From IMG/VR virus record IMGVR_UViG_3300023227_000027, positions 1-25,557 of that record: DNA of 25,557 bases; one strand, 5' to 3'. How positions within the stretch are numbered: position 1 is the first letter of the stretch; each line of letters opens with the position of its first letter. The notes beneath the pieces were generated by a model that saw only the letters and a program-made list of their open reading frames with translations, was not told the DNA's origin and searched no databases. Below, one piece after another: positions 4,971 to 24,118 of this stretch. The position numbers were made by a program, and so were the translations under genes. The stretch is from a virus (Duplodnaviria; Caudoviricetes).

Positions 4971-5987
4971 TTAAGCCGAGACGAGGATCGCACCGTTGGC
5001 CTTCGGGCTCTTGGCGCGCAGGCCAAAGATCGTATCGACGATGCCACGAGGGCCGCCGCCTTGATCTTCCAGCTTACGATGGCCGGGAGTGCGTTTAAAG
5101 GTGAGGCCCCACTTGGAGAGATCGAGGATGTAGCCCGAGCCGCGGCGCTGGGCCGTAGTCGTAGCCGCACCGGCGCCATCGAAGTAGCGCATCCGGGTGC
5201 AGGGCACCAGAACCACGCGACCGAAATCGCCCACCATGATATCGACCGTAGTCTGCAAGACTTCGCCCGCGGATTGGTTGATCCGGCGCACCACGGTGTT
5301 GCTCGCCTTGTCGGGCTGATAGATCGACATGAGGCTGATCTTCTGCTTGAGCTCGGAGCCCACTGGAGCGTGGAATTTACCCATGCCATTCGTGGCCTCG
5401 AAGACTTCTTGCGCGATGTTATTCACATCCGACTCCTCGAGAGCGGCGAGCGTGCCGGTGTAAACCTGCGCGGCCGCGGGGCGGAAACGCTCAGGCACGA
5501 TCTGCGCACCAGTAGGCGCGCCGGATTTGAGGAAACCACCGATCGAGCAGGTGCCGTATTTAGTGGCGCCACTCTGCGCTGTCCCTTCCACCTGGGAAAG
5601 TATGCGCTTTTCCACGCGGAACTTGATGCGAATCGTCGCCTTGCGCACGGCCTCGGCGTATTCGCCTTTGGAGATCGCCGGGTTTTCGCTCACGTTTTCC
5701 GCGAGATCGTCCACCATCGGCACTTCCCGCATCTTCATGACGTAGTTTTCGATGATCCCACGGTTTTCGGCCATGTTATCAAACGAAGTCACATCCTCGC
5801 CGGAGCCGACGCCGTTGATATCGTCGGTATCGCCATAGTCATCCACTTGCGTTTCAAACTTGGTATTGTGCACGGTGTCCTTGGGGAGCATCGTGAAGAG
5901 CGGCGTTTCCGAGCGCTCGATGTTGGTGATGTAGTCGGACAAATCCTGACGCTTGCCGACTTGGTTTGGTTCTTGTAATCCTGGCAT
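4971..5987 (-). CDS. Major capsid protein (DUF5309/SU10-like)
   Basis: 338 aa after the scaffold gene. N-terminal GKRQDLSDYITNI..ETP and C-terminal DFGRV..P...L...G motifs are characteristic of this family. Confidence 0.85.
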   Translation of the reverse strand: MPGLQEPNQVGKRQDLSDYITNIERSETPLFTMLPKDTVHNTKFETQVDDYGDTDDINGVGSGEDVTSFDNMAENRGIIENYVMKMREVPMVDDLAENVSENPAISKGEYAEAVRKATIRIKFRVEKRILSQVEGTAQSGATKYGTCSIGGFLKSGAPTGAQIVPERFRPAAAQVYTGTLAALEESDVNNIAQEVFEATNGMGKFHAPVGSELKQKISLMSIYQPDKASNTVVRRINQSAGEVLQTTVDIMVGDFGRVVLVPCTRMRYFDGAGAATTTAQRRGSGYILDLSKWGLTFKRTPGHRKLEDQGGGPRGIVDTIFGLRAKSPKANGAILVSA

Positions 5988-10923: not shown

Positions 10924-12942
10924 TCATGCGGCGTTTTCTCCGTAGTCTTCGGTCTCGGCGAGGATGAGGTATTTCACGAGATCGATAAAATCCTTGCAGG
11001 CGCCTTTCTGGCCGTCTTCCCCGGTCCAGTTCTGCAGCGCAAAGATTAAGTTTTTGCATTCCTTGGCGATATAGAGCCGCGGGCAATTCAAGCTATCGAT
11101 CGGCTGCCCCTCATCGTAGTCCAGGAGATCATTGATCAAGTGCACCCAATGCACCTTGGTATCATCGGCATAGGCGCCGCCGCTCGCGGGCACAAACTCC
11201 ATGCCGAGCTCATCGAGCTCCTCGAGCAGGGTGGTCGAGCCCTCGCGCTGCTGCGTGGGATGCGCGGCCGCGCGGCTGTCTAAGATCCGTGAATACACAT
11301 CCTCCCCCTGCTCAGGGCGGCGCTTGCGCTTCCTGATCGGCGTATATTCGGGGGTATCATCCTTATCCCACTGGAAAGGTTTATCATCGAGCACGACCTC
11401 CTCCCAATCGGTGCGACCTTCGAGCCGGTAGATCTCGCGCAGGTAGCGATTCAGGCCCCAGCCGAGCGCCGTTTGCGCGGGGCCTTTGGCGCCATCGTGC
11501 TTTTCGCCCGGCACCGCCCACTCGCCCATATCGCCCACGCCCGGCACGTAGCGGCCGGGGCAAGGGCTCTCGCGATAAATGTAATACGTTTTCCCGCGCG
11601 GCGTATCGAGCACGCGGCACCAGAGCATCGCCCAATTACGACCGCTGCACGGATCGACCACCATATAAGCCGTGCCCGCGCGCGGCATCTGCTCGCCGGC
11701 CATCGCGGCGTGCACGGCGGGATTGAATCGCGGAAATTTCCCCGAGATCGATTTCTCCGCGAGCCCGTAAAACCGCATGAGCTTATCCGCCGTAGGTGAA
11801 TCTTTATAGAGCGCCACGAGCTCGGGCGCATTGCCATACGCATTGTCGAAACTGTGAAAGAAGAACACGCCGGATCTCTCATCATCGATCGCCATCACCC
11901 GCGGCACCTTGCGAAATTCACGGCCTGGCGCCGGCGCGGGTTGGCTCGGGCGCCCCTCCGCAAGCGCGATCAAATCCTGCCCGGCGAGCGTGAGCTCGAG
12001 ATCGGGCTCCCCACCATCGGCCGGGCACATATACGCCGTGCCCTCGGCGGTCGTGGTCGCGCGGTCGAGAAACATTTTAACCGTGGGCGAGTAGCCACCG
12101 GCCGCGGTGCCGAGCTCGCCGACCGGGGTAAAGGTAATCAACAACCAGCCCGCACGAGTCGCCACGCGAGCCTTGAGCGTTTCGATCCAGGAGGCCGGCA
12201 CCAGCTCATCGCACCAGACCACATCCAACTCGCCGCCCTCGATCTTGGCCGCATCCTGCTCGTAGTAGCGAAACGATAAATCACTGCGATTCGGCCACAC
12301 GAGCTTCTCCTCCGAGAAACCCGTCTGCTGCTTGTAGGCAATGTAGGCCGGGTTGAGGCGGATACCCTTCTCCGTGCGCAGCTCGGCCGGAATATATTTA
12401 TAAATCAGCGGCTGCTGATAGTCGCGACTCATGCTCGCATCCTGGTGAAAAGCCCAGGCGCGCGCCCCGGCCTTAAACTGCAAGAGCTTGTTTACCCGAC
12501 TTGCGGCCCACTCGCTCTTGCCGCCCCGATTGCCGCCATTAAGCAGCAGGATCTTGATCGGCGCATCGCGCTTGAGCAACCGGCGCCGCACCGCCAGCGC
12601 CCAATCCTGCTTGGCCTGGAGCTCCTCGCGCTCGGTGATCGACTTCGCGGTGAGAATCATTTCCCGCGACGGATCCTCCCAGGGGAAACCGCACAACGCA
12701 TCGAGCACCTTCCACGATCCGGGCTCGAAACCATACCGCGCCGGATCGGCCTGCATCCGGTGAATCGTCTCCTCGCGCTCATTCAAAAACTCGAGCAAAG
12801 CCCCCACGCTATTCGCGCGCAGCCAAGCCTCATCCGGCAACGGTGCCACCGGGTGCGGAGTCACGCCCAGCAAGGCCCAAACGTCCGAGGACCAGGCTTC
12901 ACCCGGGGCCAACAAAGGAGCTGTTTGATCAGAGAGATTCAT
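10924..12942 (-). CDS. terL: Terminase large subunit
   Basis: Walker A GGNRGGKS, Walker B VVWCDE, coupling motif ITFTP, nuclease motifs MVVDP and C-terminal KDFID. Upstream of the portal gene. Confidence 0.9.
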   Translation of the reverse strand: MNLSDQTAPLLAPGEAWSSDVWALLGVTPHPVAPLPDEAWLRANSVGALLEFLNEREETIHRMQADPARYGFEPGSWKVLDALCGFPWEDPSREMILTAKSITEREELQAKQDWALAVRRRLLKRDAPIKILLLNGGNRGGKSEWAASRVNKLLQFKAGARAWAFHQDASMSRDYQQPLIYKYIPAELRTEKGIRLNPAYIAYKQQTGFSEEKLVWPNRSDLSFRYYEQDAAKIEGGELDVVWCDELVPASWIETLKARVATRAGWLLITFTPVGELGTAAGGYSPTVKMFLDRATTTAEGTAYMCPADGGEPDLELTLAGQDLIALAEGRPSQPAPAPGREFRKVPRVMAIDDERSGVFFFHSFDNAYGNAPELVALYKDSPTADKLMRFYGLAEKSISGKFPRFNPAVHAAMAGEQMPRAGTAYMVVDPCSGRNWAMLWCRVLDTPRGKTYYIYRESPCPGRYVPGVGDMGEWAVPGEKHDGAKGPAQTALGWGLNRYLREIYRLEGRTDWEEVVLDDKPFQWDKDDTPEYTPIRKRKRRPEQGEDVYSRILDSRAAAHPTQQREGSTTLLEELDELGMEFVPASGGAYADDTKVHWVHLINDLLDYDEGQPIDSLNCPRLYIAKECKNLIFALQNWTGEDGQKGACKDFIDLVKYLILAETEDYGENAA

Positions 12943-12984
12943 GCTCGAAAATTCGGAATAGGATTTATATGGAAATCAGGAAAA

Positions 12985-13332
12985 TCAGGAAACGATCCGA
13001 AAGGAATTATCGGGCAGATAGTTAGCCAGCACCGCCGCGACCTTGCGGCCCGCCAGCGTAGGCGAGACCGTGAGCCCACCCCACGGATCGCGCACCGTGC
13101 GCAGCTTGACCTTAACTCCATCATCGAGACACCGGATCGTGAGCTCGAAACCGGAAGGCTTCGCCGCGGGCATCTTGCAATGCGAAGTATCGGGCAGCAC
13201 ATCCGGGAGCGCGAGCCGCTCTATGCGCTTGCGCTCCTTGGCGGCGCGCATCTTAGCAAACCGAGCCGCGCGGCAGCAGTTCTTACTCCGGTGCAAAGAT
13301 TTGCGTCTTACCTGTGTGTTTAGGTGTGGCAT
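12985..13332 (-). CDS. Basic hypothetical protein upstream of terL
   Basis: 115-aa Arg/Lys-rich ORF starting 2 nt after the TGA at 13335. Confidence 0.55.
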   Translation of the reverse strand: MPHLNTQVRRKSLHRSKNCCRAARFAKMRAAKERKRIERLALPDVLPDTSHCKMPAAKPSGFELTIRCLDDGVKVKLRTVRDPWGGLTVSPTLAGRKVAAVLANYLPDNSFRIVS

Positions 13333-13334
13333 AT

Positions 13335-13532
13335 TCAGTTGTTCGATCCGCCTGAGCGTTTCTGTTTTTTTGGGCGGATGGCGCGGAGCGCCAAGACAGC
13401 CTCTTCGGTGATTCGCTGATCACCAGTCTCTCGGCGGCTGATGCTTTCGCGGGGCACACCCAAGAGGGCGGCAAGCCCGGCCTGCGTGAGGCCGAGCTTT
13501 TCGCGGGTCGCTTTATAGTCGTCGGGGCTCAC
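13335..13532 (-). CDS. XRE/Cro-type HTH protein (cassette 1)
   Basis: REKLGLTQAGLAALLGVPRESISRRETG is a classic HTH_3 signature. Its stop lies in phage DNA beyond the cassette boundary. Confidence 0.85.
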   Translation of the reverse strand: MSPDDYKATREKLGLTQAGLAALLGVPRESISRRETGDQRITEEAVLALRAIRPKKQKRSGGSNN

Positions 13533-13765
13533 AGGTCAATGTATCCGCTGTTGTAGCTGTCCGTCGCCGCGTCACCGCGATAGCCGACGTTGGACGCTGC
13601 CTGCTTCGCGGTGATCGCTCTCGCACCGCAAGCGGCACTGTTTACATCTCCATCGCTCTCATGTCGATCCACCCACTCGTCGCGCTCAATCTTGGATTTG
13701 AAGCGGTAGGTATTCATTTCGTTCGCGAATCCACGGGGGGATTTTTCGGCGTAATAGTGTTTCAT
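13529..13765 (-). CDS. Hypothetical protein (cassette 1), coupled to the HTH gene
   Basis: 78 aa from ATG 13765 after an A-rich leader, with a 4-nt overlap into the HTH gene. Confidence 0.65.
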   Translation of the reverse strand: MKHYYAEKSPRGFANEMNTYRFKSKIERDEWVDRHESDGDVNSAACGARAITAKQAASNVGYRGDAATDSYNSGYIDL

Positions 13766-13802
13766 TTTATATATTTGTTTTTGGTGAGGCTTGATTACCT
13801 CG

Positions 13803-13839
13803 ATGTGACATAGTGTGCATATGCTCACATTATGCGCAA
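13803..13839 (-). promoter_or_regulatory. Putative sigma70-type promoter with overlapping palindromic operator
   Basis: Minus-strand TTGCGC-18 nt-CACTAT in AT-rich DNA. Inverted repeat ATGTGA(13803)...TCACAT(13825) and a GCATATGC palindrome overlap it. Confidence 0.5.
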
Positions 13840-13889
13840 GCTTTATTTGTGATATTTCTCACTTTTATTTTGAGCACGTAAATGAGCGG

Positions 13890-13948
13890 ATCGAACCAGT
13901 CAGCCAGAGTTAACTCGCTTCGCTCGCACCTCAGCTGAGTTGTTCGTC
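13890..13948 (+). repeat. attC-like site 1 (59 bp)
   Basis: R'' ATCGAAC pairs with the cassette-start core GTTCGAT (13341; match extends to 11 bp). TCAGC/GCTGA arms, TCGCTTCGCTCG centre, R' GTTCGTC. Confidence 0.9.
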
Positions 13949-14215
13949 TCAGTAGTGGGTCTTTATGTTCTTCAGCATCGTCACGCGCCCTACAAATACT
14001 TTGCTTTCATCGTGCCTTCCGTCGGCTTCATGTAGCTGCGTGACCTCATCACTCGCCTCCTTTAGCGCCTCGGCCTCAGTGTCAAAATATGAAACATTTG
14101 GATAATACGGGTGATCTGAAACCATAACCCATTTAGACGAACCAGACACTTCACCCAACTCCTCACGGCGGGCTGGCACTTCGGCGGGTAATGTCTCGAT
14201 AGTTTCTTGTTTCAT
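13949..14215 (-). CDS. Hypothetical protein (cassette 2)
   Basis: 88 aa. GAAAGGA RBS and ATG lie inside attC2, and the stop abuts the core of attC1. Confidence 0.7.
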   Translation of the reverse strand: MKQETIETLPAEVPARREELGEVSGSSKWVMVSDHPYYPNVSYFDTEAEALKEASDEVTQLHEADGRHDESKVFVGRVTMLKNIKTHY

Positions 14216-14261
14216 TTTGATCCTTTCGGTGGTTCGTCGTCGGGTGAGTTAGATGTTCTAC
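14136..14261 (+). repeat. attC-like site 2 (126 bp)
   Basis: R'' GACGAAC is the reverse complement of GTTCGTC (13942). TCACCC/GGGTGA arms, R' GTTCTAC. Confidence 0.85.
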
Positions 14262-14497
14262 TGCCCGATTGCGGCCAGTTTTGCGCGTTGCTTGGCCCCT
14301 ACGTGTGGAACGTGACGTGATCGAGTCTGCTTCGTTAGCACCTTACCTAGTTTGCTGCGGTGATCGTGAGGGCTGACCTGCATGCCTGTTTTCTGCTTTG
14401 GGGTCGCGTCTTTCATGTCGACGGGAACGAAGTTGCGTATAAAGGCTGATGACTGTGTCATTTCTTCTTGAGTTAATTGTCCTGATGGAACGTGCAT
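14258..14497 (-). CDS. Hypothetical protein (cassette 3)
   Basis: 79 aa, with its TAG stop inside the core GTTCTAC. Confidence 0.6.
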   Translation of the reverse strand: MHVPSGQLTQEEMTQSSAFIRNFVPVDMKDATPKQKTGMQVSPHDHRSKLGKVLTKQTRSRHVPHVGAKQRAKLAAIGQ

Positions 14498-14526
14498 TAT
14501 TATATAGTTGAGGGTTTGATTACGGG

Positions 14527-15294
14527 TTAAATTTCGGAGGTAGAACCATCGTTTCGAGACAACCTCGCTTCGCTCGGCGTCTCACACGAACTGTTCTGCT
14601 TCAAAAATTCACGGCCCACGTATTCCGTGTAAGCGGGCGGTATTCCTAGCGAGAGTTCGCTGAGTGTTAAATTCCAATCGACCTGCATGTGTTCCTTTTG
14701 CACCGCGAGCGGGACGCGATACTCTCCCACGTTGCACACCGTCCGACCGTTGGGGCGGTTCGTCGATCCGGGGAAGATTCGGGCAGTGAATCGCTTGTGA
14801 TCGCACGGCACTGGATCAATCAGGAAACTCGCCTCAAACAGTCGATGTCGCCGCACCCTAATTCCGAACGATGTCCCGCACAGTTGGACGGGATCTTTCA
14901 GCGGAGCTCCTGGGACGTTCTCCATAACCCAATGCTTGCCGCTCGCAACCAGTGCTTGCCGGGTCGGCTCGATCATATCCGGCCATTTCGGTTTGTGCCC
15001 CGGTCGGCAATTCCGATAGACTGTGAATGTCTGGCACGGCGGACTTGCGTGAATCACGTCGTATTCGTGCCCGTGAGCTCGCAGATATTCCAACGCATCA
15101 CCTTGAATGAACGTGTGGGGATTGTTTGGCTGAGGGTTGATGTCCACCCCTACAATGTCGAATCCGGCTCGGCGGTAGCCTTCCCCTGCACAACCAGCCC
15201 CGCAAAACAGATCAAGCAGAACAAGACGGTGCTGACCAACCTGCTTGGCGCTAGGTGTCGGCGTTTCGTTTTCGATTATACCCTGTTTATTCAT
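14527..15294 (-). CDS. C5-cytosine DNA methyltransferase-like protein (cassette 4)
   Basis: Motif I LDLFCGAG, motif IV ASPPCQ, motif VI MENV and RxR (RRHR). Short phage-type enzyme with no cognate nuclease seen. Confidence 0.85.
   Translation of the reverse strand: MNKQGIIENETPTPSAKQVGQHRLVLLDLFCGAGCAGEGYRRAGFDIVGVDINPQPNNPHTFIQGDALEYLRAHGHEYDVIHASPPCQTFTVYRNCRPGHKPKWPDMIEPTRQALVASGKHWVMENVPGAPLKDPVQLCGTSFGIRVRRHRLFEASFLIDPVPCDHKRFTARIFPGSTNRPNGRTVCNVGEYRVPLAVQKEHMQVDWNLTLSELSLGIPPAYTEYVGREFLKQNSSCETPSEARLSRNDGSTSEI
14540..14599 (+). repeat. attC-like site 3 (60 bp), near-identical to site 15
   Basis: R'' GTAGAAC matches GTTCTAC (14255). GAGAC/GTCTC arms, R' GTTCTGC. Confidence 0.9.
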
Positions 15295-15348
15295 TCGTTT
15301 AACCCTGTTTGGTTGTTCGTCGCAGGTGGCAGACCTGAAGCGTTCTGT
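15216..15348 (+). repeat. attC-like site 4 (133 bp)
   Basis: R'' GCAGAAC matches GTTCTGC (14593). CTGACCAACCTGC/GCAGGTGGCAG arms, R' GTTCTGT. Confidence 0.85.
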
Positions 15349-15671
15349 CTCTTGAGTTCGATGATTTCACATGCCGCTTGGACACCTCGATTAAATCGGT
15401 AGTATTTATCGGAGCCTTGTTCGTATGGATTATCGCTGAATGAGCCATCCTTACACTTCCCTGTCTCGTATCCTTCGCGCTGCACGGGATCGGCTAGATC
15501 ACAGACTATCGCGTTGGGCATAATTTTATATTTATAGGTGGGAGGTGGCTTGATAGGTCGCTTGCTACGCATCGCGGCAGCATGTCCTGCTGCGTATCCT
15601 CTTCGATAATCGGATACAGAACCAGTCGCTAGTGTGGAACGCGATTGCTCGCAGTGTGTTTTATCGGGCAT
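15291..15671 (-). CDS. Hypothetical protein (cassette 5)
   Basis: 126 aa with YRRGYAAG and NPY..YYRFNRG motifs. Starts in attC5 and stops in attC4 with an ATGA overlap. Confidence 0.7.
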   Translation of the reverse strand: MPDKTHCEQSRSTLATGSVSDYRRGYAAGHAAAMRSKRPIKPPPTYKYKIMPNAIVCDLADPVQREGYETGKCKDGSFSDNPYEQGSDKYYRFNRGVQAACEIIELKRQNASGLPPATNNQTGLNE

Positions 15672-15738
15672 GGTATTTTATTCGGTTGAGGGTTTCGAGG
15701 CCGCGATCTCGTCGCGTCCCACATCTCGGTCGTTCGAC
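15616..15738 (+). repeat. attC-like site 5 (123-bp family)
   Basis: R'' ACAGAAC matches GTTCTGT (15342). TGTGGAACGCGA/TCGCGTCCCACA arms, R' GTTCGAC. Confidence 0.9.
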
Positions 15739-16061
15739 TGTGCGGGTTCATTGGTAATCGTTTCGGCCTGTCGAATGTATCGAAAAGCTGTTTCGTGCCG
15801 TGTTTCATTCGGCCATTTTTGAGATACGGCATAAATCAAATCATAGTATTTTGCCTCCAATTGTTCAATTTCGTCTGCGGCTTTTACCATGAGTTCATCG
15901 GTCGCGATTTCGTCCACAGTGGACATTTCTCCACAGTCGCCAGACCAGCGTCGCGGAGTTTGAATTGCGCCCTCGCGTAGTCGCTCAACTAGAGTCGAAC
16001 CCACAGCCAGAGCCAACGAGGCCGACTGTCCTTTTTCGGGTGATTGATTTGGTGTATTCAT
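15678..16061 (-). CDS. Hypothetical protein (cassette 6)
   Basis: 127 aa with a phage-type LVERLR...AADEIEQL motif. Starts in attC6 and stops in attC5. Confidence 0.7.
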   Translation of the reverse strand: MNTPNQSPEKGQSASLALAVGSTLVERLREGAIQTPRRWSGDCGEMSTVDEIATDELMVKAADEIEQLEAKYYDLIYAVSQKWPNETRHETAFRYIRQAETITNEPAQSNDRDVGRDEIAASKPSTE

Positions 16062-16106
16062 ATCAGGTATTACTTCGGGCCTCGTTGCTCATCAGAACCG
16101 TTAGGC
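15994..16106 (+). repeat. attC-like site 6 (113-bp family)
   Basis: R'' GTCGAAC matches GTTCGAC (15732). GAGCCAACGAGGCC/GGCCTCGTTGCTC arms with one extra base, canonical R' GTTAGGC. Confidence 0.9.
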
Positions 16107-16119
16107 AAAGAAAGATCCG

Positions 16120-16566
16120 ATGCGCAGCGAGTATTCAAAGGAAGAAGAGAATCGTTGGTATTCGCTCGGCGAGTCAGTCGCTCTTGCCATCCCATATCTC
16201 CCTTGGACAGCAGCTCCCTGGCTACGGCCAGCGACAACTGATGCCGATTTGCCAGCGCGCGTTCAGGCGTTTGAGCTGATCGAACGGCCCCACGTCGCGC
16301 GCATCGAAGCAGCCGTTGAGCAGTGGCTTCGAGACCAGAAGCCACCCGTATTAGAAGAAGAGCCCATGTTTTTCTTTTCATTACGATTTCAGGTTGTCGG
16401 TTCTTTACTGATGTCATTCCGTTTATTGGCTGATGCGCTGCCATATCCAGCCGACATTTCGGAGCGTGAGATCGCGCATCGTTGGCTGATCGATTGGTGG
16501 CGCGATAGTGGGGCCTTCCACGGAGTTGGCCACACCTCTGCGGAGCACGAAGGAGAGCCTAACTAG
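16120..16566 (+). CDS. Hypothetical protein in a canonically oriented cassette (cassette 7)
   Basis: ATG 13 nt after GTTAGGC, and the ORF ends ...EPN* across R'' GCCTAAC-TAG, the textbook cassette layout. Confidence 0.75.
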   Translation: MRSEYSKEEENRWYSLGESVALAIPYLPWTAAPWLRPATTDADLPARVQAFELIERPHVARIEAAVEQWLRDQKPPVLEEEPMFFFSLRFQVVGSLLMSFRLLADALPYPADISEREIAHRWLIDWWRDSGAFHGVGHTSAEHEGEPN

Positions 16567-16667
16567 ACGCCACAGCGCAACGCGGGCAGCTGTCCGATAT
16601 TCGCAAGCATCACCGCAATCATGATCTCTCCTCCTTTGGCCCGCGTGGCTCAGCTTTAACGTAGGAT
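16557..16667 (+). repeat. attC-like site 7 (111 bp)
   Basis: Canonical R'' GCCTAAC matches GTTAGGC (16100). ACGCGGGC/GCCCGCGT arms, atypical R' GTAGGAT. Confidence 0.85.
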
Positions 16668-17035
16668 TTTCGGGCAAAGAACCTCTTGATTTTCTCTGCA
16701 TCTTCCGGCGAAGAGGTTTGCAGCATGAGGGCTTTGAATTTCGCCATACTCAGCTTTTCTACATTTTTATCGTATATTTTTTGCACACGCACGAGAGCGG
16801 TCACTCGCCATCCCGTATGCGTTTCCTCGTTCACCAGTCCTGCGAATCCGTCGATTTTACTTTGCTTCCAGTGACGCGGTGGCTTCACCAACAATTGGCG
16901 CGGAGGCGGCACGATAATCGTGTATCTTACCGTGCCGTCATTAGTTCCAGCCGTGGTGCAGTTCGTGTCCGTGCAGTATGATATTAAGTAATCCCTGCTA
17001 GTCGCGGTCGCAGTTGTCTGATCGTATGTTCCCAT
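16619..17035 (-). CDS. Hypothetical protein (cassette 8)
   Basis: ORF fills the cassette. Likely ATG at 17035 (alternative TTG 17065). Stops inside attC7. Confidence 0.65.
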   Translation of the reverse strand: MGTYDQTTATATSRDYLISYCTDTNCTTAGTNDGTVRYTIIVPPPRQLLVKPPRHWKQSKIDGFAGLVNEETHTGWRVTALVRVQKIYDKNVEKLSMAKFKALMLQTSSPEDAEKIKRFFARKSYVKAEPRGPKEERS

Positions 17036-17042
17036 AGTATTT

Positions 17043-17147
17043 ATCCTACCAGCGATTCGAGACAAGCCGCCTCACGCCGCTGGTTTGCGCGAGAGCTTGG
17101 TGTTGTTTAAAGATTATTGGTTGGCTGTCTCACTCGGGTTGTTCGCG
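17043..17147 (+). repeat. attC-like site 8 (105 bp, TAC core variant)
   Basis: R'' ATCCTAC matches GTAGGAT (16661). GAGACAAGCC/GGCTGTCTC arms, R' GTTCGCG. Confidence 0.85.
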
Positions 17148-17425
17148 GAAAGAGCATCGCGGGCGCAGTTTTCGAGCAGCCCGGCGAGCCATGTCGTATT
17201 CTCCCCGAACCAAAGGCAGGCGCACGCGCCCTCATTAAGCATGGTGCCGCTCGGGAGTTTCTTCGGTGGTTGGACACCAGTTCCAGAGCACCGTTTGCAA
17301 TCGGGAGTTGGCGGGTAATGCAGTCGGTCTTCAGGGAAGCGGGCGCGAAGCTCCGCTAACAAATCCACAGAGCCAACGCCGTTGGCGTTTTCCTTGAGGG
17401 GCGGCGTTGTAGTGGCGTGGCTCAT
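17114..17425 (-). CDS. Cys-rich zinc-finger-like protein (cassette 9)
   Basis: CKRCSGTG...CAC motif. Likely ATG 17425 inside attC9, stop in attC8. Confidence 0.65.
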   Translation of the reverse strand: MSHATTTPPLKENANGVGSVDLLAELRARFPEDRLHYPPTPDCKRCSGTGVQPPKKLPSGTMLNEGACACLWFGENTTWLAGLLENCARDALSANNPSETANQ

Positions 17426-17438
17426 GTCAGGGTTCGCG
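17354..17438 (+). repeat. attC-like site 9 (85 bp)
   Basis: R'' CGCTAAC versus GTTCGCG (17141), 6/7 complementary. GAGCCAACGCC/GGCGTGGCTC arms, R' GTTCGCG. Confidence 0.85.
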
Positions 17439-18035
17439 CTATTCGAGAGCGCCGGACATTTGTTGCATAGTTTCATAGTCGCATCCTGTGTTTTCCATGT
17501 CCGATCGCCCCGAGAAGAATTGTCCCGCGCCAAGTATTGAGAAGGGGTCGCCATCATTCGGATTCCAGATTCCTTCCTCGATCATCCATGCCATGCGATA
17601 GAGTGCGCACAGCATTCGAGCGCCGTCCTTGCCGTATTTCCCCTCTGAGAATGATTTCTTTCTGGTGTAGCCATTCACGGTCAGCGACGCTTTCCATCTT
17701 ACGCACACCTGGCCTGTCCCTGGTCGGTCAAGACGCTTCGAGATTCCGCCAGTCATGCGCGTCATGCAGCCACGCCGGTAACGCCCCTTTGTAGAGTATA
17801 GGCGCTGTTTAGACTTTCTCGCCGGGCGTAAATCTAGTAGTCGTTTGAGTTCCGATTTGAGTTCTGAAATTTTACGCGCAGCATTTTTACTCCTCACGCC
17901 AGCACCTTTATCGTAGTAGTTTAATGCACATCTTACCCGATGCAGTTCGGAGGCAAGACGCGAACGAGGCGAGACAGCCAACCCGATTGGGCGCTGCTGG
18001 TTACTCGCGGGAGATTTAAGGTCGTCGGTAGTCAT
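17439..18035 (-). CDS. AP2-like DNA-binding domain protein (cassette 10)
   Basis: WKASLTVNG..KKSFSEGKYG..A...A..R resembles phage/bacterial AP2 domains. No HNH motif seen. Confidence 0.6.
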   Translation of the reverse strand: MTTDDLKSPASNQQRPIGLAVSPRSRLASELHRVRCALNYYDKGAGVRSKNAARKISELKSELKRLLDLRPARKSKQRLYSTKGRYRRGCMTRMTGGISKRLDRPGTGQVCVRWKASLTVNGYTRKKSFSEGKYGKDGARMLCALYRMAWMIEEGIWNPNDGDPFSILGAGQFFSGRSDMENTGCDYETMQQMSGALE

Positions 18036-18065
18036 TGGTCGGGTTGGCTGCTCTTGATGTTCGAC
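17959..18065 (+). repeat. attC-like site 10 (107 bp)
   Basis: R'' CGCGAAC matches GTTCGCG (17432). CAGCCAACCCGA/TCGGGTTGGCTG arms, R' GTTCGAC. Confidence 0.9.
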
Positions 18066-18358
18066 GAAAGAATTTCTAGGAACTCCCGAATCTTTGGCCT
18101 TAGATATTTATCGCGCACTCTTTCGACCACACAGATGTGCCCGTGGTGCTTTTCCTCCCATCGGCGGCAGTGGCTCCCGTATAGGTCTAGCAGGTCGTGA
18201 AAATTGTAGAGATTGATTTCGTCGGAAGCTTCAGCGTCCCACTTAAAAAACCAATACTGCTCCAGGTCTTCTTGGCTTTGCTTAGCTAAGTCATCATCGA
18301 GCGATTGAGCCAAAGATGTTATCGTGTTTTCTATATCTGTTTCGGTTACTTGTGTCAT
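18032..18358 (-). CDS. Hypothetical protein (cassette 11)
   Basis: 108 aa, stops in attC10 with an ATGA overlap to the next gene. Confidence 0.7.
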   Translation of the reverse strand: MTQVTETDIENTITSLAQSLDDDLAKQSQEDLEQYWFFKWDAEASDEINLYNFHDLLDLYGSHCRRWEEKHHGHICVVERVRDKYLRPKIREFLEILSSNIKSSQPDQ

Positions 18359-18382
18359 AGTGTTTTCGTTATGTCAGTTAGG

Positions 18383-18442
18383 GTCGAACGAGTCAGAGCT
18401 AGCAATTTCGCTCCGCTCAATCGCTAGTCTTTCATGTTCGGA
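18383..18442 (+). repeat. attC-like site 11 (60 bp)
   Basis: R'' GTCGAAC matches GTTCGAC (18059). CTAGC/GCTAG arms, R' GTTCGGA. Confidence 0.85.
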
Positions 18443-18624
18443 AGAAATAGCGGAGTGATGCACCCCTCTTCGCATCTGCGGCAATAGAGAGTGTATCCAC
18501 GAGGCTCTATCTTACTTGGATAAAGTTCCGCGAACTCGTGTTGTTTACAGGTTGGGCAAACCGGAATTTCCGAACCAGTCGCTGGTGTGGAACGCGATTG
18601 CTCGCTTTGGATTTTATCACTCAT
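18424..18624 (-). CDS. Small zinc-ribbon protein (cassette 12)
   Basis: CPTC...CRRC. Starts in attC12 and stops in attC11. Confidence 0.65.
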   Translation of the reverse strand: MSDKIQSEQSRSTPATGSEIPVCPTCKQHEFAELYPSKIEPRGYTLYCRRCEEGCITPLFLPNMKD

Positions 18625-18691
18625 GTTATTTTAATCGGTTGATTGCTTCGTGGCCGCGCACTCGTCGCGTCCCACATCTCTATTGTTCTGC
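18569..18691 (+). repeat. attC-like site 12 (123-bp family)
   Basis: R'' TCCGAAC matches GTTCGGA (18436). Same arms as site 5, R' GTTCTGC. Confidence 0.9.
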
Positions 18692-19032
18692 CACTTCGCA
18701 TTGAAGTCGTTCATCATCTGTTCATCGGCAAATCCCATCCATGTTTCACCATTCACGGTTGCGCCTCCGCTATGCCATTTCCCCGCCTTGCCGTGGATTG
18801 GCCACGCTTCGGGGCCGCAGTATTCACGACACCACTCCATGACGTTCTGCCAGCGTTGAGAGTTTATGCTGTCCGTGTATGCCTCCACCATCCAAGGCGT
18901 TCCATCCCACACTTTATGCGTGAGATCGTCCGTTGAGTCATAGGCCATGACGCGATGATAAAGAGCAGAACCAACAGCCAGAGCCCACGAGGCCGACTGT
19001 CCTTTTTCGGGTGTTTCATTTGGTGTATTCAT
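18631..19032 (-). CDS. Trp-rich hypothetical protein (cassette 13)
   Basis: Start reassigned to ATG 19032 by homology of its N-terminus (MNTPN..PEKGQSAS.ALAVGS) to the cassette 6 gene. Confidence 0.7.
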   Translation of the reverse strand: MNTPNETPEKGQSASWALAVGSALYHRVMAYDSTDDLTHKVWDGTPWMVEAYTDSINSQRWQNVMEWCREYCGPEAWPIHGKAGKWHSGGATVNGETWMGFADEQMMNDFNAKWQNNRDVGRDECAATKQSTD

Positions 19033-19077
19033 GTTCTTAGTTTTTCGGGCCTCGTTGCTCATCTGAGCTGGTTCTGC
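18965..19077 (+). repeat. attC-like site 13 (113-bp family)
   Basis: R'' GCAGAAC matches GTTCTGC (18685). Arms like site 6, R' GTTCTGC. Confidence 0.9.
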
Positions 19078-19370
19078 GATGATTCGGCCATCGGGGTTAT
19101 CGTGAGGGTTTGATCCCTTGCGCCGTCGTCGATCCATGTGAATCCGTCGAGCTTGCAGGCGTCCTTCACGCCCATGAGTCGGCCTAGTGTGTTCACTCCC
19201 GAGACTGTTACTCGGGCTAGTTCTAGATAGTCTGCGAGTTCCTCTAAGCATATAGGCAGTCTATCCTTGGGGACTTCCAGGAGGTCCATTACATGGTTGA
19301 TCGTATATCCGGGAGCAGAACCAGTCGCTGGTGTGGAACGCGATTGCTCGCCCTGTGTTTGAGTAGGCAT
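19059..19370 (-). CDS. Hypothetical protein (cassette 14)
   Basis: 103 aa, starts in attC14 and stops in attC13. Confidence 0.7.
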   Translation of the reverse strand: MPTQTQGEQSRSTPATGSAPGYTINHVMDLLEVPKDRLPICLEELADYLELARVTVSGVNTLGRLMGVKDACKLDGFTWIDDGARDQTLTITPMAESSQNQLR

Positions 19371-19437
19371 ATTATTTTAGGAGGTTGATTGTTTCGTGAG
19401 CGCGTTCTCGTCGCGTCCCACATCTCGGTCGTTCTAC
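19315..19437 (+). repeat. attC-like site 14 (123-bp family)
   Basis: R'' GCAGAAC matches GTTCTGC (19071). Same arms as sites 5 and 12, R' GTTCTAC. Confidence 0.9.
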
Positions 19438-19757
19438 CCACCGCCGTTGCTGTAGTCGTTGGCGATTATCTCAGGAATCTTGGCGCATAGCACCTCATCG
19501 CAATAGTTGCCGTCGTCTTGTTGATACGCCCTCTTGCCAATTTCCTTCCCGCACTTCTCAAGCAGTCCACGGTAGTAGTCCGTGTTTCGTTGATTCTGTG
19601 CGGCGGTGTCCATCCAGTTTGCGATTCGACGTGCTACTGATTCCGCGAGCACGGTATCCATTTCTATGTGCTTCGTCTCTTCGTCGCACCAACATTGAGC
19701 GGCCATTTGACGCGCTTCTTCCATCCAAGTTTCGGGAGTTGTTGTTGTTGTATTCAT
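19434..19757 (-). CDS. Hypothetical protein (cassette 15)
   Basis: 107 aa, with its TAG stop inside the core GTTCTAC. Confidence 0.7.
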   Translation of the reverse strand: MNTTTTTPETWMEEARQMAAQCWCDEETKHIEMDTVLAESVARRIANWMDTAAQNQRNTDYYRGLLEKCGKEIGKRAYQQDDGNYCDEVLCAKIPEIIANDYSNGGG

Positions 19758-19771
19758 TGTATTATTACGGG

Positions 19772-20314
19772 TTAAAATTCGGAGGTAGAACCATCGTTTC
19801 GAGACAACCTCGCTTCGCTCGGCGTCTCACACGAACTGTTCTCTCTAAGAGATTTGGGGTTCATCACGAGGACTGACTCGCAGTCCCATCCATAGAGGCT
19901 GTGTGGGCGAGCGAAGCGGGTTTCCTGTTGGCCTCTCTCGGTCAGATACACGGCGTCGATTCCGCTCATCTCTAACGGTTGGAACAACGGGAAACTCCAA
20001 TTAGGCATCAGTTCGACCCACGGGAGTTGATCCCTCGCGTCTTCCAGCGAGTCGATGACAAGCGCCACCCCCTCAAATTCAATATCGAAATGGGTTGATA
20101 GATCACCGAACGATTCAGCATCGCACCACTCACGCCATCCGTAATTGCACCCCACGGGGGATGCCCAGAATCCCCCACGAGGTTTCACTAAATGATCGTC
20201 CGTAATCGGTTTGAACTTCGACGGGTCGTATTGACGCGCACCGTAATGCCGCAAGGAGAGAACAAGTCGCTGCTGAGCAACCGCCGGAGCGGTGGAGTTT
20301 TCTTTTGTATTCAT
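19772..20314 (-). CDS. Hypothetical protein (cassette 16), possibly ADP-ribosyltransferase-like fold
   Basis: Start ATG 20314 inside attC16 (ATGA overlap). Motifs LRHYG, KPRGGFWASP and WDCESVLVMNP. The fold is an inference only. Confidence 0.65.
   Translation of the reverse strand: MNTKENSTAPAVAQQRLVLSLRHYGARQYDPSKFKPITDDHLVKPRGGFWASPVGCNYGWREWCDAESFGDLSTHFDIEFEGVALVIDSLEDARDQLPWVELMPNWSFPLFQPLEMSGIDAVYLTERGQQETRFARPHSLYGWDCESVLVMNPKSLRENSSCETPSEARLSRNDGSTSEF
19785..19844 (+). repeat. attC-like site 15 (60 bp), near-identical to site 3
   Basis: R'' GTAGAAC matches GTTCTAC (19431), R' GTTCTCT. 19764-19842 equals 14519-14597 with one mismatch. Confidence 0.9.
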
Positions 20315-20356
20315 AGTCTTGGGCGCTCCGTCTGTGGCAGAGCTTGAGCGTTCTGT
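20257..20356 (+). repeat. attC-like site 16 (100 bp), right end of the array
   Basis: R'' AGAGAAC matches GTTCTCT (19838). CGGAGCG/CGCTCCG inner arms, R' GTTCTGT running into phage DNA. Confidence 0.85.
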
Positions 20357-20631
20357 GATTCCATGCGCTGCCAGATCCGCCGGATCGCGGTTTGACCCAC
20401 CCCAAACTCCAATGCCAGGCACTTGCGCTCTTCGAGCGAGCCCGCAGTGGCCCGCAGGCGGGATTGGATCTGCGCCCGCTCATCGGGATCGAGCCGCTTC
20501 GAGTAAATGCCGGGCTCCTCGTGCAACGCGCCGCCGCCGGTGCGCATGAGGCCCGGACAGTAGCGAGCAATCAGCGACTGGCACCGGGTCGCCGTGCTGT
20601 AATCATCGGAGTGAGCGTAGGAGGTAATCAT
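20311..20631 (-). CDS. Phage protein with C-terminal HTH; its 3' end is the array insertion site
   Basis: KCLALEFGVGQTAIRRIW is HTH-like. The last 12 codons come from attC16. Confidence 0.65.
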   Translation of the reverse strand: MITSYAHSDDYSTATRCQSLIARYCPGLMRTGGGALHEEPGIYSKRLDPDERAQIQSRLRATAGSLEERKCLALEFGVGQTAIRRIWQRMESQNAQALPQTERPRL

Positions 20632-20633
20632 GG

Positions 20634-20670
20634 TTCGATTTTGGAGCTTAGATTTCGGGTTTTGGAGTTC
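20634..20670. repeat. Degenerate heptamer tandem repeat
   Basis: GATTTTG GAGCTTA GATTTCG GGTTTTG GAG, related to 21535-21569 and 10540-10572. Confidence 0.55.
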
Positions 20671-20941
20671 AGTCGCCCGCCGCGGTGATCGCGGCTTGCA
20701 AGCGGTTTATTAAGATCGGGCTCACGTAGTAGCCGTTGAGAGATTCTTGCTTGTCGGCCGCGATCGCCATCGCCACCGCCAGGAGTTCGCGCCGCGTTGT
20801 CATGAGGCGCCGCGCCGAGAGCTGCAGCTTTTCCGCCGGCTCATCGCCGCGGAGATTAAGCTCCGAAGTCACGCAGCCCAGGCGCTTCGTGGAAGAGAGA
20901 AAGAGAGCCGAAAGCTCGGCATGTTCGGCGGGATCAATCAT
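20669..20941 (-). CDS. Hypothetical protein
   Basis: 90 aa from ATG 20941, overlapping the upstream stop. Confidence 0.6.
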   Translation of the reverse strand: MIDPAEHAELSALFLSSTKRLGCVTSELNLRGDEPAEKLQLSARRLMTTRRELLAVAMAIAADKQESLNGYYVSPILINRLQAAITAAGD

Positions 20942-21533
20942 CTTTGAATCCCAGGATTTTATGCCAAAAATACTTGGCACAGAAATGCGCGGTCAGACAC
21001 ACCGACCACCACCACACATGCGTGACGTAGCTCGCCTGCCAGATCGGCCGCGAGCCCAGCACATAGGCATAACGGATCGGCTCGCCGTCCTCGTGGTGAT
21101 GGCGCAAGCACAGATTATTTTTCGAGCGCGCGGTGCTACTCGAAGACCATACGCCAAACTCGGCATCGAGGAGCGGCGGCCGGCCGCGATAGATCCAATC
21201 GCGCAACACATTGCCGGTGCTGCCCCCCTTGAGCGTGAGGTGCCGGGCTTCGCCGGTCGTCACATCGAAATCCGCAAACAAGCAATCATGATCCTCCGAG
21301 GAGATATCCACCCCATCCTCCGTGCCCCCATTGACCACTGTGATCCGCGCAAACACTTCCGACAGGCGCCGGTAAAACTTGGCCGTATCTTGCCAGGTGC
21401 CGCGCAGCCAAAGCCGCCGGCCAAACTCATCCGTGGCCGGATCGCTCAACGGATCCAGCACCACATCGGTATGCGGTGGATCATCGCCGCCGCCATCCCA
21501 TGATCGGTAGTTTCTATCGTGTCGTGTGCTCAT
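20934..21533 (-). CDS. Hypothetical protein (possible beta-helix segment)
   Basis: 199-aa ORF in the operon. The EDGVDI...LTLKGGSTGNV pattern suggests a beta-helix. Confidence 0.55.
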   Translation of the reverse strand: MSTRHDRNYRSWDGGGDDPPHTDVVLDPLSDPATDEFGRRLWLRGTWQDTAKFYRRLSEVFARITVVNGGTEDGVDISSEDHDCLFADFDVTTGEARHLTLKGGSTGNVLRDWIYRGRPPLLDAEFGVWSSSSTARSKNNLCLRHHHEDGEPIRYAYVLGSRPIWQASYVTHVWWWSVCLTAHFCAKYFWHKILGFKDD

Positions 21534-21534
21534 T

Positions 21535-21634: not shown

Positions 21635-21828
21635 GATTCTGAGGTTTGAGGTTTTGAGAGATTGAGCTTCGAGGCATCGATCACGGCGCGGTTGATTTCA
21701 CCTGGGCCGGGATTGCTCCACTGCCACCAGAGCGAGCCGATCGCGCAATGCGGGCACTCGATAAATCCATGCACTCCGCTCAGCGTGCGCGGATCGCTGG
21801 CCTTGCCGCAGTCGGGGCAGATCTTCAC
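21631..21828 (-). CDS. Small zinc-ribbon protein
   Basis: CPDC...CPHC, with a GTGA overlap with the helicase stop. Confidence 0.6.
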   Translation of the reverse strand: MKICPDCGKASDPRTLSGVHGFIECPHCAIGSLWWQWSNPGPGEINRAVIDASKLNLSKPQTSES

Positions 21829-23390
21829 GAGCCACCTCCGAGGTATTTCGATTTATCGAATTTCACGCCATCGGCCACCGAGGGCGCGCGCGGCGCGGGC
21901 GCTGTTCCCGCCGGGCGCTTGTCGCCATGCGGCACAAATCGGGTGTAGCATTTCTCGAAGACGGCTTTGACCGCACTCGTGCGACCGGTGCGGCGCTTCT
22001 CCTGATACCACCAGACCTCGATCCGCACGAGGCCGGGCTGCACTTGCGAATTGCCCGCCGTATCTTCGGGCGGCATGTAGAGAAAGATCATGCGATCGGC
22101 ATCGTGATAGATGGCCTGGCTCTCGCGCAGATCGCCGCGGTGCGGCATGCGGTGGATCAGCTTGCCATCTTCGTCGTGCTTGGCCTGTCGAGATTCGGAG
22201 AGGCCGCTCTCATTGAGCTGCGCGGCGACCACCATCACACAATCGAGCTCGCGCTGCAGGGCTTGGAGCTGGTGCGAGACAAAGGCCACGCGGGCCTCGC
22301 TATTACTCAGGCCCTTCCGATCGGTATCGAAGATTTGCAGGTAATCGACCAGGATCACATCGGGCGTGCCGTGCAGGTGACACCAGGCGCGGGCATGCGA
22401 GCAGAGATCCTCGATCGTCGCCAGTGGCGAGGCCGCTTCGTTTTCGATACAGAAGAGGCGCTTATTCGCCCACTCCTCGATCATGCGTTCCATCTCGTCG
22501 GAAAAGGCTTTCTGGCGATCCACCGGCTGATCCTCGATATCGAGATCATACCCCACCTCGGCGCTCGCCATCATCTTGCAAAATCCTTTTACCCCCGTTT
22601 CCCGCACATAAGCCAGGACACGCTGCCCCTGGTGGAGCGAGGCCCGCGCGATCTGGCGCAGTGCCACACTCTTGCCGTGCCCGGAGCCGCCCCCGATCAC
22701 GATAAATTTATCATCGGCCCCACCGGCGCCAAAAGGTTTACACTGCGCATCGAAGCGCTCAAGCCCACTCGGCACCCAGCGACTGCGATCCACTTTGCCC
22801 GAGGCCAGCGCGAGCACTTCATCCTTGGCCGAATCGATCTTTTCCTCGAGGGATTGCTTCGCCGCCTTGCGCCCGAGCCCGATCAGCTTGCGGCCAATAT
22901 CCGCCGCGCTCTCGGCAAACTTATCGCGGGTCGAGAAATCAAGGGCCGATTCACGCAGACTCGCCGCGAGCTTCACCGTGTGGCGCATCTCCCAAAGCAG
23001 CACCACAAGCTCGGCATAATAGCGCGTATTGGCCGAGGTGCTCGCGCTGGCCGTCATTTCCGATAGGGCCTGCACACCGCCGATCTTCTCAAGATCGCCG
23101 CGCAGCTGCAGCTCTTCCGCCAGCACCGCCACATCGACCCCCGACTGCCCCGCCTGGCGCAGCTCGTGGATCAGCCCCCATACGAGGCCACTCGCGGGCT
23201 CGTAAAATGCCTTCGCCTTCACCCCGCAATTCACCGCGATCGCCCAGGCTTCGCCGGTATCATCGGCGATCACGCTCGAGATCAGCCGGTGCTCAGCCTC
23301 GATCGAGTGCGGCGGCGCCTGCCCGCCGATCACCTCGATCTCCTGCCCCGCAGGCCCGACGATATGCTCGACTCGTTTCTCGGCGCTCAT
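21825..23390 (-). CDS. dnaB: DnaB-like replicative helicase
   Basis: N-terminal PPHSIEAE, Walker A GGSGHGKS, Walker B ILVDYLQ, plus AAQLN, DLRES.AI..DAD and KRRTG motifs. Confidence 0.92.
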   Translation of the reverse strand: MSAEKRVEHIVGPAGQEIEVIGGQAPPHSIEAEHRLISSVIADDTGEAWAIAVNCGVKAKAFYEPASGLVWGLIHELRQAGQSGVDVAVLAEELQLRGDLEKIGGVQALSEMTASASTSANTRYYAELVVLLWEMRHTVKLAASLRESALDFSTRDKFAESAADIGRKLIGLGRKAAKQSLEEKIDSAKDEVLALASGKVDRSRWVPSGLERFDAQCKPFGAGGADDKFIVIGGGSGHGKSVALRQIARASLHQGQRVLAYVRETGVKGFCKMMASAEVGYDLDIEDQPVDRQKAFSDEMERMIEEWANKRLFCIENEAASPLATIEDLCSHARAWCHLHGTPDVILVDYLQIFDTDRKGLSNSEARVAFVSHQLQALQRELDCVMVVAAQLNESGLSESRQAKHDEDGKLIHRMPHRGDLRESQAIYHDADRMIFLYMPPEDTAGNSQVQPGLVRIEVWWYQEKRRTGRTSAVKAVFEKCYTRFVPHGDKRPAGTAPAPRAPSVADGVKFDKSKYLGGGS

Positions 23391-24118
23391 GATACCACCT
23401 CCACCCCGCCGGTGTGCGCATTGACCAACTTCGGATCAAACGGCACCGCGGGCGCCCCGCCGATAAATTTTTTGTCGGAACCAGAATTTCCCGAAGGCCC
23501 GAACTCGGTCGTGCGGCGCTGCCAATTCCGGCACGCGGCGCGCCAGTCTTTGATCGTGGTCTTGCCGCCTTGCTTCCAGCCATTGGCTGAGAAGTGATCG
23601 TGAAACTTCTCTGCTTCGAGTTTCGATAAGCTGATTGTCTCTGCATAGGAGATGACTTCTGCAAGATCTCTCGGCCGCTTTGCGGTCGCGACTACGCCTT
23701 CGACTACGTCTTCGGATACGACTACGACTGAGTGCGCATCTGCTTTCTTCTGCGTATCGCCTGATATTTCTTGCGTAGCATCTGCGATCATTGGCGCATC
23801 ACATGAGGGAAACTTGCTGGCAGAGCGCCTTTGTTGGCCGAAATTAACCACTTCCAAATAGTGTTTACCTTTTGATTCGTAGAGCTTTATCAGCTTCGCC
23901 TTGGCCACCTCGGCCAGCATCCGCTTGATCATCGGCTCTTTCACGCGGTCGATGCGCAAGGGATAGAGCGCCGCGCGCAGGAGCCCCGCATGCGCTTCCG
24001 TGCGCCCGTAATCGTCCACAATGGACAACAAGCGCCGGAAAAACACCTCACCCTCAACGGAAAGCTCGTTTATTTTCTCCGAAGTGAGGATCCCGGCTCT
24101 GATAATTCTGTTTGGCAT
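23387..24118 (-). CDS. Phage replication initiator / replisome organiser
   Basis: N-terminal NRII...VDDYGR and C-terminal FHDHFSANGW..G...KDWRAACRNW motifs. Coupled to the helicase gene. Confidence 0.75.
   Translation of the reverse strand: MPNRIIRAGILTSEKINELSVEGEVFFRRLLSIVDDYGRTEAHAGLLRAALYPLRIDRVKEPMIKRMLAEVAKAKLIKLYESKGKHYLEVVNFGQQRRSASKFPSCDAPMIADATQEISGDTQKKADAHSVVVVSEDVVEGVVATAKRPRDLAEVISYAETISLSKLEAEKFHDHFSANGWKQGGKTTIKDWRAACRNWQRRTTEFGPSGNSGSDKKFIGGAPAVPFDPKLVNAHTGGVEVVS

Follow-up and report, generated by a model that had tools for sequence, protein, structure and literature searches.

The virus record IMGVR_UViG_3300023227_000027 of IMG/VR, rated linear and 62% complete, was analysed over its whole length of 25,557 nt (hereafter the window) and carries an array of 16 candidate integron gene cassettes at 13341..20356. 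Nearly all genes of the window lie on the minus strand. A replication initiator (23387..24118, -) and a DnaB-type helicase (21825..23390, -), both assigned by PHROG family scan, stand on one side of the array. On the other side are a large terminase (TerL; 10924..12942, -), recognised by a weak Terminase_6N match and by many homologues that their sources name terminase, and a major head protein (4971..5987, -; phrog_1328, E = 9e-23). The array thus lies between the replication genes and the packaging genes of a ~41-kb phage, in agreement with the first-pass annotation, a reading made from the letters alone. Its 16 sites in 7 kb take up about 17% of the phage genome, and its G+C content is 50-55% compared with 58-63% in the surroundings. 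Directly downstream of the array, and upstream of the terminase gene, is a phage gene of 115 aa (12985..13332, -). The gene at the opposite end (106 aa; 20311..20631, -) reads across the last recombination point, G|TT, in a frame shared with cassette genes, and its stop overlaps the start of the cassette 16 gene as ATGA.

The array was delimited with a script that searched for a core GT[TA]NNNN, its exact reverse complement 100-1500 nt further on, and the next core 45-150 nt beyond that. One unbroken chain of 16 core/inverse-core pairs was returned, spanning 13341..20356, with cores at 13341, 13942, 14255, 14593, 15342, 15732, 16100, 16661, 17120, 17432, 18059, 18436, 18685, 19071, 19431 and 19838, a last inverse core at 20257 and a closing core at 20350. 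Elsewhere in the window no chain was longer than 1, and 200 dinucleotide-preserving shuffles of 13001-20700 gave a maximum of 4. All 16 hairpins reported by the first-pass annotation were recovered, measuring 59-133 nt from inverse core to next core. Each of the 16 opens with an inverse core that ends in AAC and closes with a core that begins with GTT (NNNNAAC...GTTNNNN), with a single TAC/GTA boundary, ATCCTAC at 17043 paired with GTAGGAT at 16661. The core at the start of each cassette was complementary to that cassette's own inverse core, as had been claimed (the own-core rule), a pattern that implies a crossover at G|TT. The earlier count of 15 perfect pairs and one of 6/7 stands if hairpin 9 is placed by the covariance model described below, at 17354-17438 with the opening CGCTAAC. 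This sequence matches 6/7 with GTTTGCG at 17085, the foot of a tight 49-nt hairpin (17043-17091), and the pair is probably the imperfect one of that count. It does not stand in the chain, which pairs GTTGGCT at 17120 with AGCCAAC at 17371 (7/7) and finds 16 perfect pairs of 16. With the span widened to 2.5 kb, 12-kb loci yielded chains of 5-7 by chance, so the chain search was not used for calling arrays elsewhere.

Three families were apparent among the hairpins: 1, 3, 11 and 15 (59-60 nt, with the apex CTCGCTTCGCTCG or a variant), 5, 12 and 14 (123 nt), and 6 and 13 (113 nt). The fourth core base, a purine in textbook cores, is C in 14/17 array cores.

Rfam has no attC family, and a scan of the window with it gave two chance-level matches only; the hairpin type was therefore sought in bacteria. 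When species genomes were scanned with a motif derived from the short hairpins (GAAC, gap, CTCGCTTCGCTCG, gap, GTTC), hairpins came up in bacteria, among them Planctomycetota, Verrucomicrobiota and Myxococcota, along with many unrelated haloarchaeal ones. An integron integrase scored above the NCBI TIGR02249 cut-off in all five motif-positive bacterial genomes tested. In an Isosphaeraceae genome (G002) the motif match lay ~700 nt from intI, in an array of nine sites that obeys the own-core rule. The genes of this array have the canonical layout, reading away from intI with a site behind each of them; C is the fourth core base in four of its nine attC. The G002 intI (L153:18853-19800) contains two in-frame stops (one TGA, one TAG), so the integrase may be inactive. 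Most of the 120 listed apex-motif matches were rejected as the unrelated haloarchaeal hairpin, a conserved ~57-63 nt element bounded by TTTGAAC...GTTCAAA with the CTCGCTTCGCTCG apex, which occurs in dozens of haloarchaeal genomes (L023-L142), usually with one match per locus.

The nine G002 attC sites, aligned in top-strand orientation, were made into a covariance model (R1) that was searched over both strands of the whole window with filters off. The 12 best matches all fell on array hairpins and on the + strand, 11 of them with the exact end points of the chain. Eight matches had E < 0.02, and 15/16 hairpins were reached at E <= 10; on the minus strand of the whole window there was nothing below E = 1. 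In an alignment of the R1 matches, 91.2% of cells formed a pair, compared with 65.2% when shuffled and 30-45% with slid partners, and compensatory changes were present in all 12 inner-stem pairs. By eye, the left arms of four sites (attC 1, 3, 4 and 11) contain an extra base, as in the G002 sites. As judged by the R1 matches, the hairpins that the model recognises are attC sites, and this surrogate model upholds the first-pass annotation on the point. When the minus strands were folded as single-stranded DNA, hairpins 10 (z = -2.99) and 13 (z = -3.22) beat all 200 shuffles, and the other 14 were weak. Scanning for hairpins by folding energy lacked selectivity in the window and in the GC-rich bacterial locus alike.

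A natural difference in cassette content was found in a second virus record (G001; 41,443 nt, 98% complete), which matches window positions 6-13345 and 13938-25557 at 99.96-99.98% identity. G001 lacks 601 nt, exactly body 1 plus hairpin 1, and its junction reads from the left flank through AGTTGTTCG to the TCTCAG of cassette 2. Outside the indel there were 7 mismatches in ~24.9 kb, with 0 in the other 15 cassettes. The expectation that related phages differ in cassette content at this locus was thus borne out by one cassette, with a breakpoint at G|TT. Cassette 1 (13342..13942, +) is present in the window and in L158 and begun in L021; the two assemblies that carry its form besides the window are a metagenome contig of 2,615 nt and a virus contig of 23 kb. 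L021 (IMGVR_UViG_3300022885_000079) is a 23-kb assembly of the same phage that stops 15 nt into cassette 1, an end that would fit an assembly break from mixed cassette content in the sample. A metagenome scan of the left junction gave no new variant; besides two records already known, it returned an identical fragment and a chance match.

The variable cassette is the array member adjoining the left junction (AGTTG|TTCGAT; 13337..13347, +), which lies 5 nt upstream of the start of the core gene 12985..13332(-). No R1 match terminates at this junction; it is not an attC and is the putative primary insertion site, attI-like or attG-like. It is also where primary-site integron insertion would put the newest cassette, although gain and loss are not distinguishable. 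Either way, the gain or loss of cassette 1 is recent enough for the remaining array to show no other change.

The same difference settles how a cassette is to be read. The own-core rule is symmetric, so the core pairs do not decide which side of a body bears its attC. R1 matched on the + strand only, which makes the + strand the attC top strand and a cassette a body plus its right-hand hairpin. The same follows from attC 3 and 15, which share their left flank and not their right, and most directly from the G001 indel, which is body 1 plus hairpin 1.

Each of the 16 cassettes is accordingly a body followed by its attC on the + strand. R1 scored attC 1 (13890..13948, 59 nt, apex CTCGCTTCGCTCG) at 14.6 bits, and its fold is an end-to-end hairpin. 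attC 2 (14136..14261, 126 nt) reached 10.3 bits (E = 1.1 over the window) with a perfect core pair, and contains the ATG (14215) of the gene 13949..14215(-). The top R1 match was attC 3 (14540..14599, 60 nt; 29.3 bits, E = 2.8e-5), which is near-identical to attC 15 (19785..19844, 60 nt; 22.3 bits), including ~20 nt of left flank (BLAST self-match of 14519-14597 with 19764-19842). attC 4 (15216..15348, 133 nt) scored 18.6 bits. The repeated family of attC 5 (15616..15738, 123 nt; 21.4 bits, ATG 15671 inside), attC 12 (18569..18691, 123 nt; 22.6 bits, ATG 18624 inside) and attC 14 (19315..19437, 123 nt; 25.9 bits, ATG 19370 inside) gave high scores throughout. So did attC 6 (15994..16106, 113 nt; 24.7 bits, ATG 16061 inside), whose closing core is the canonical GTTAGGC; its relative attC 13 (18965..19077, 113 nt) scored 15.3 bits and contains ATG 19062 and ATG 19032. 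attC 7 (16557..16667, 111 nt) closes with the GTA variant GTAGGAT and has 12.2 bits and its core pair. The weakest site is attC 8 (17043..17126), which opens with ATCCTAC and folds into a tight inner hairpin; it probably ends at GTTTGCG 17085-17091 (49 nt), with GTTGGCT 17120-17126 as the alternative. attC 9 (17354..17438, 85 nt by R1; 17371-17438 by chain) scored 13.2 bits and contains ATG 17425. The scores of attC 10 (17959..18065, 107 nt, ATG 18035 inside) and of attC 11 (18383..18442, 60 nt, an end-to-end hairpin) were 8.0 and 8.8 bits. The last site, attC 16 (20257..20356, 100 nt), scored 17.7 bits and contains ATG 20314, and its right arm forms the last 13 codons of the core gene 20311..20631(-).

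The first-pass annotation missed that nearly all cassette genes run opposite to the attC top strand. In 15/16 cassettes the genes lie on the minus strand, which is the attC bottom strand, and are co-directional with the phage genes. The canonical layout of a top-strand gene followed by its attC was seen only in cassette 7; in the other 15 the attC is at the 5' end of the gene. The ATG lies inside the gene's own attC in ten cassettes (2, 4, 5, 6, 9, 10, 12, 13, 14 and 16), and the left arm of these ten longer sites encodes the first residues. The four 59-60-nt sites are located just upstream of the start of their gene. At the 3' end, ten cassette genes extend 7-67 nt beyond the G|TT of their own cassette into the attC of the neighbour: the helix-turn-helix (HTH) gene of cassette 1 and the genes of cassettes 4, 5, 6, 8, 11, 12, 13, 14 and 16. 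With the alternative boundary the cassette 9 gene crosses too, as an eleventh. In all boundary-crossing genes and in the flanking gene 20311..20631, the core AAC is read as a codon, with (core - stop) mod 3 = 0 in every one; the chance that ten further genes share the frame of the first is ~2e-5 for three frames. Several cassette genes end in ATGA overlaps with the next start.

Since the left arm of attC encodes the N-terminus, otherwise unrelated proteins receive the same first 18-22 residues. The genes of attC 5, 12 and 14 have in common the N-terminal peptide ..EQSRST(L/P)ATGS.., encoded by the attC left arm (15616-15671, 18569-18624 and 19315-19370), and those of attC 6 and 13 the N-terminus MNTPN..PEKGQSAS..ALAVGS. 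On the gene strand, a motif ..TCAACC.. followed by TAAAATA stands 3-7 nt before the ATG, in attC loops or just after short sites (window 15672-15690, 18625-18643, 19371-19389 and 14498-14520). There is no clear Shine-Dalgarno sequence in this region, and in two sites the TAA is the stop of the upstream gene.

These features raise the question of whether the hairpins serve phage gene expression, as stem-loops of promoters or terminators comparable to the promoter-early stem-loops of T4-type phages, with genes shuffled by homologous recombination between them and not by an integrase. The start codons and the A/T-rich TAAAATA motif in the loops of the long hairpins would suit such a role, as would the repetition of three hairpin families. 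However, homologous exchange from repeat to repeat would not yield complementarity of each cassette to its own core, and the match to bacterial integron attC sites is strand-specific. The array contains 5 sigma-70-like promoters, the one promoter type scanned, where 5.2 +/- 2.1 are expected, and 12 terminator-like sites where the expectation is 9.2 +/- 2.5, so that neither was enriched. We regard this explanation as scarcely credible.

The cargo was mostly without family. Searches of NCBIfam, Pfam and PHROGs named 3/17 cassette genes (a methyltransferase, an HTH protein and a weak AP2 match) and gave no family in these databases for the rest. Cassette 1 carries a gene of 99 aa (13529..13828, -) without family and an antitoxin-like HTH gene of 65 aa (13335..13532, -; HTH_3, E = 1.1e-9), whose protein also matched the MqsA-type antitoxin family at 1.7e-8, below the family cut-off; its cargo thus resembles a toxin-antitoxin pair. 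Cassette 4 encodes a DNA methyltransferase of 255 aa (14527..15294, -; phrog_363, E = 8.9e-37, with a weak PF00145 match), which starts inside attC 4 and ends 67 nt beyond the recombination point of the cassette. The weak AP2-domain match is in the 198-aa gene of cassette 10 (ATG 18035). The gene of cassette 7 (148 aa; 16120..16566, +), the only one in canonical orientation, has its stop directly after GCCTAAC and a textbook core on either side, GTTAGGC and GCCTAAC. One homologue of its protein was found, 70% identical and named from a metagenome-assembled genome (MAG) of Lacunisphaera (Opitutaceae), and no match was seen in 401 sampled Verrucomicrobiota genomes.

No integrase was in view, as had been noted: TIGR02249 had no match in the window, and a six-frame PF00589 search of the 98% complete G001 showed no tyrosine recombinase at E <= 0.1. 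Among the open reading frames (ORFs) scanned with Pfam and PHROGs (36 and 28 in the window, 17 in the rest of G001), none matched a recombinase or transposase family, and R1 detected no further attC in G001 positions 1-20000. Because the sites are attC and neither record has a tyrosine recombinase, the array is classed as a cluster of attC sites lacking integrases (CALIN): two or more close attC are present without a nearby intI, and of the parts that define a complete integron (intI, an adjacent attI and the Pc promoter) the integrase is absent. The sites might instead be cut by an unrecognised recombinase of the phage itself. For most G001 proteins, three plus-strand ORFs at the left end among them, no family was matched, and about 2% of the genome may be missing, which leaves room for such an enzyme. 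The null results of the six-frame and family searches speak against it, as does the resemblance of the sites to those of true IntI enzymes, and we consider a phage-encoded recombinase very improbable.

The enzyme acting on the phage attC would more plausibly be the IntI of the infected host. TerL relatives were found in 6/401 sampled Verrucomicrobiota genomes and in 0/401 sampled Planctomycetota genomes. IntI scored above the cut-off in 116/401 Verrucomicrobiota, including two of the six genomes with TerL relatives; the intI search beyond the window thus gave a positive result in the candidate host group and none in G001. The TerL relatives in Verrucomicrobiota, together with closest named homologues from Opitutaceae MAGs, suggest that the host is probably an Opitutaceae-type Verrucomicrobiota bacterium. 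Beyond the window, G001 encodes a 1,887-aa protein (L018:4675-10338) that matches the virion structural family phrog_22602 (E = 3.4e-57). A weaker match to a virion RNA polymerase (phrog_2206, E = 1e-14) raises the possibility that the phage injects a polymerase of its own into the host.

Related phages were examined through TerL. Homologues 53-62% identical occur on ~40 kb contigs, one of them named from an Opitutaceae MAG, and an alignment of 27 TerL proteins led to 78 further virus loci of about 910 kb. R1 matched two of these at E < 1e-3 (L232 and L224). In L224 (TerL 40% identical) there were 14 attC matches at 7778-12374, up to 50 bits and all antisense to TerL, with the own-core rule perfect in 11/13 cassettes. 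Its genes are backwards too: an ATG lies inside 10/14 sites, and 8/12 ATG-initiated ORFs (at least 40 aa, covering a core) are in the AAC frame. The L224 array is located downstream of TerL, not upstream, and its cargo has no DNA or protein similarity to that of the window. L232 (44.8 kb contig) has a single strong attC at 12914-13019 (47.9 bits), ~1.3 kb downstream of TerL, which may be a lone cassette. The gap between DnaB and TerL is 2.85-3.4 kb in four relatives showing both genes, compared with 8.9 kb here, a difference that fits the array being an insertion. The small flanking genes had no detectable homologue in the 78 loci, so that no 'empty site' was demonstrable.

We consider it highly probable that the array is a 16-cassette CALIN with genuine attC sites and no integrase of its own, likely worked at G|TT by a host IntI. 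The R1 matches, the own-core rule and the one-cassette difference in G001 together support the footprint of integron cassettes that the first-pass annotation had seen. Several observations weigh against this conclusion. R1 missed attC 8, and four sites reached only E 0.3-4. One of the nine R1 training sites was found through the phage-hairpin motif, which makes the scores of attC 1, 3 and 15 partly circular; those of attC 14, 6, 12, 5, 4 and 16 are free of this circularity. The covariation alignment was fitted to the R1 model itself. In single-stranded DNA folding, 14/16 bottom strands were unremarkable (z +0.05 to -1.66). The genes are oriented oppositely to those of canonical cassettes, the four assemblies show a single cassette-level polymorphism, and 76/78 of the TerL-relative loci had no attC at E < 1e-3.

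The single polymorphism bears on whether the array is a fossil: illegitimate recombination would have transferred it whole from the chromosomal integron of a bacterium, and its cassettes would since have ceased to recombine in the phage. A phage without an integrase and with a single polymorphism among four assemblies is what this would predict, and off-target recombination has been suggested as an entry route by Qi et al. (PMC9892861). Yet the polymorphism is a precise single cassette at G|TT, in the first position of an otherwise unchanged array. The genes are co-directional with those of the phage, ATGA-coupled to the flanking core gene and in one frame at the cores, a layout unlike that of the canonical G002 bacterial array, whose genes are top-strand. 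We therefore think a fossil array improbable and favour a CALIN still worked by a host integrase.

Under the CALIN reading, the array would have begun when a first cassette was inserted at a GTT that separates two phage genes, in an attI-like or attG-type reaction, and would have grown by further insertions at the founding site. The IntI of the infected host would insert and excise cassettes at G|TT, and the fixed frame would keep reshuffled cassettes translatable within the polycistronic transcript of the phage. A broader proposal, to which we give slightly less than an even chance, is that phages of integron-rich bacteria keep their own backward cassette pool, in which the attC gives the starts and cassettes inserted by the host are instantly translatable and coupled. 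One frame across the recombination point and a start supplied by attC would make any inserted cassette translatable at once. If true, viruses without an integrase would use the integron as a plug-and-play exchanger of accessory genes.

The array suggests that phages can swap accessory genes, such as a DNA methyltransferase and a toxin-antitoxin-like pair, by means of a host enzyme, and that they can carry cassettes between bacteria. The backward layout raises the question of co-evolution between recombination sites and coding sequence, and it bears on the origin of cassettes, an old open question of the integron field.

Integrons are usually regarded as bacterial devices. The sedentary chromosomal integron of G002 (L153) resembles the phage array in attC architecture, in the own-core rule and in common GTTC cores. 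Both have the motifs GAAC-CAG/AAG-NCGCTGC on the left and GAGCT on the right, with a bulged A in GAC/AAC. The two differ in that G002 has intI and top-strand genes followed by attC, whereas the phage has no intI and bottom-strand genes. Promoter-early stem-loops of T4-type phages flank small variable genes in a hyperplastic region, where they are generally taken to act by homologous recombination. They are not known to have the G|TT own-core rule or attC architecture.

The first-pass annotation had described integrons as mainly known from chromosomes, plasmids and transposons; this needs qualifying, as integron parts in phages are already published and the kind is not new (PMC9892861). In their screen of 10,705 phage genomes, Qi, Rajabal, Ghaly, Tetu and Gillings (2023) identified 17 CALINs, 3 complete integrons and one In0, with 2-3 predicted attC sites in each of the 14 phages of Table S1. 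IntI1 recombined 5/6 tested phage attC sites, and methyltransferases were among the cargo (PMC9892861). As here, those CALINs consist of attC and cassettes without intI, in temperate, virulent and uncharacterised phages, and a host IntI was proposed. Insertion of cassettes by IntI at GWT genome sites, termed attG, is reported in bioRxiv 10.1101/2022.09.11.507474. Such insertion is alike in giving an array outside an integron platform that starts at a bare GTT in ordinary sequence, and different in that single cassettes were described there, in the chromosomes of E. coli and V. cholerae.

The literature that we searched on integrons or attC in viral or phage DNA described no large backward phage arrays, nor did it contain this array size, backward genes in 15/16 cassettes, ten starts inside attC or the one-frame crossing. 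Since phage CALINs are published, the array is not categorically new. Measured against the phages of PMC9892861, it has 16 sites and cassettes over about a sixth of a phage genome, compared with clusters of two or three sites; 15/16 of its genes are backwards, many starting inside attC with a shared frame, where same-direction cassettes are typical; and a natural single-cassette difference separates its sister genomes, where sites of the published CALINs were assayed at the bench. What sets the array apart from the published cases is its size, the exactness of the one-cassette difference in nature and a layout that is backward and frame-locked.

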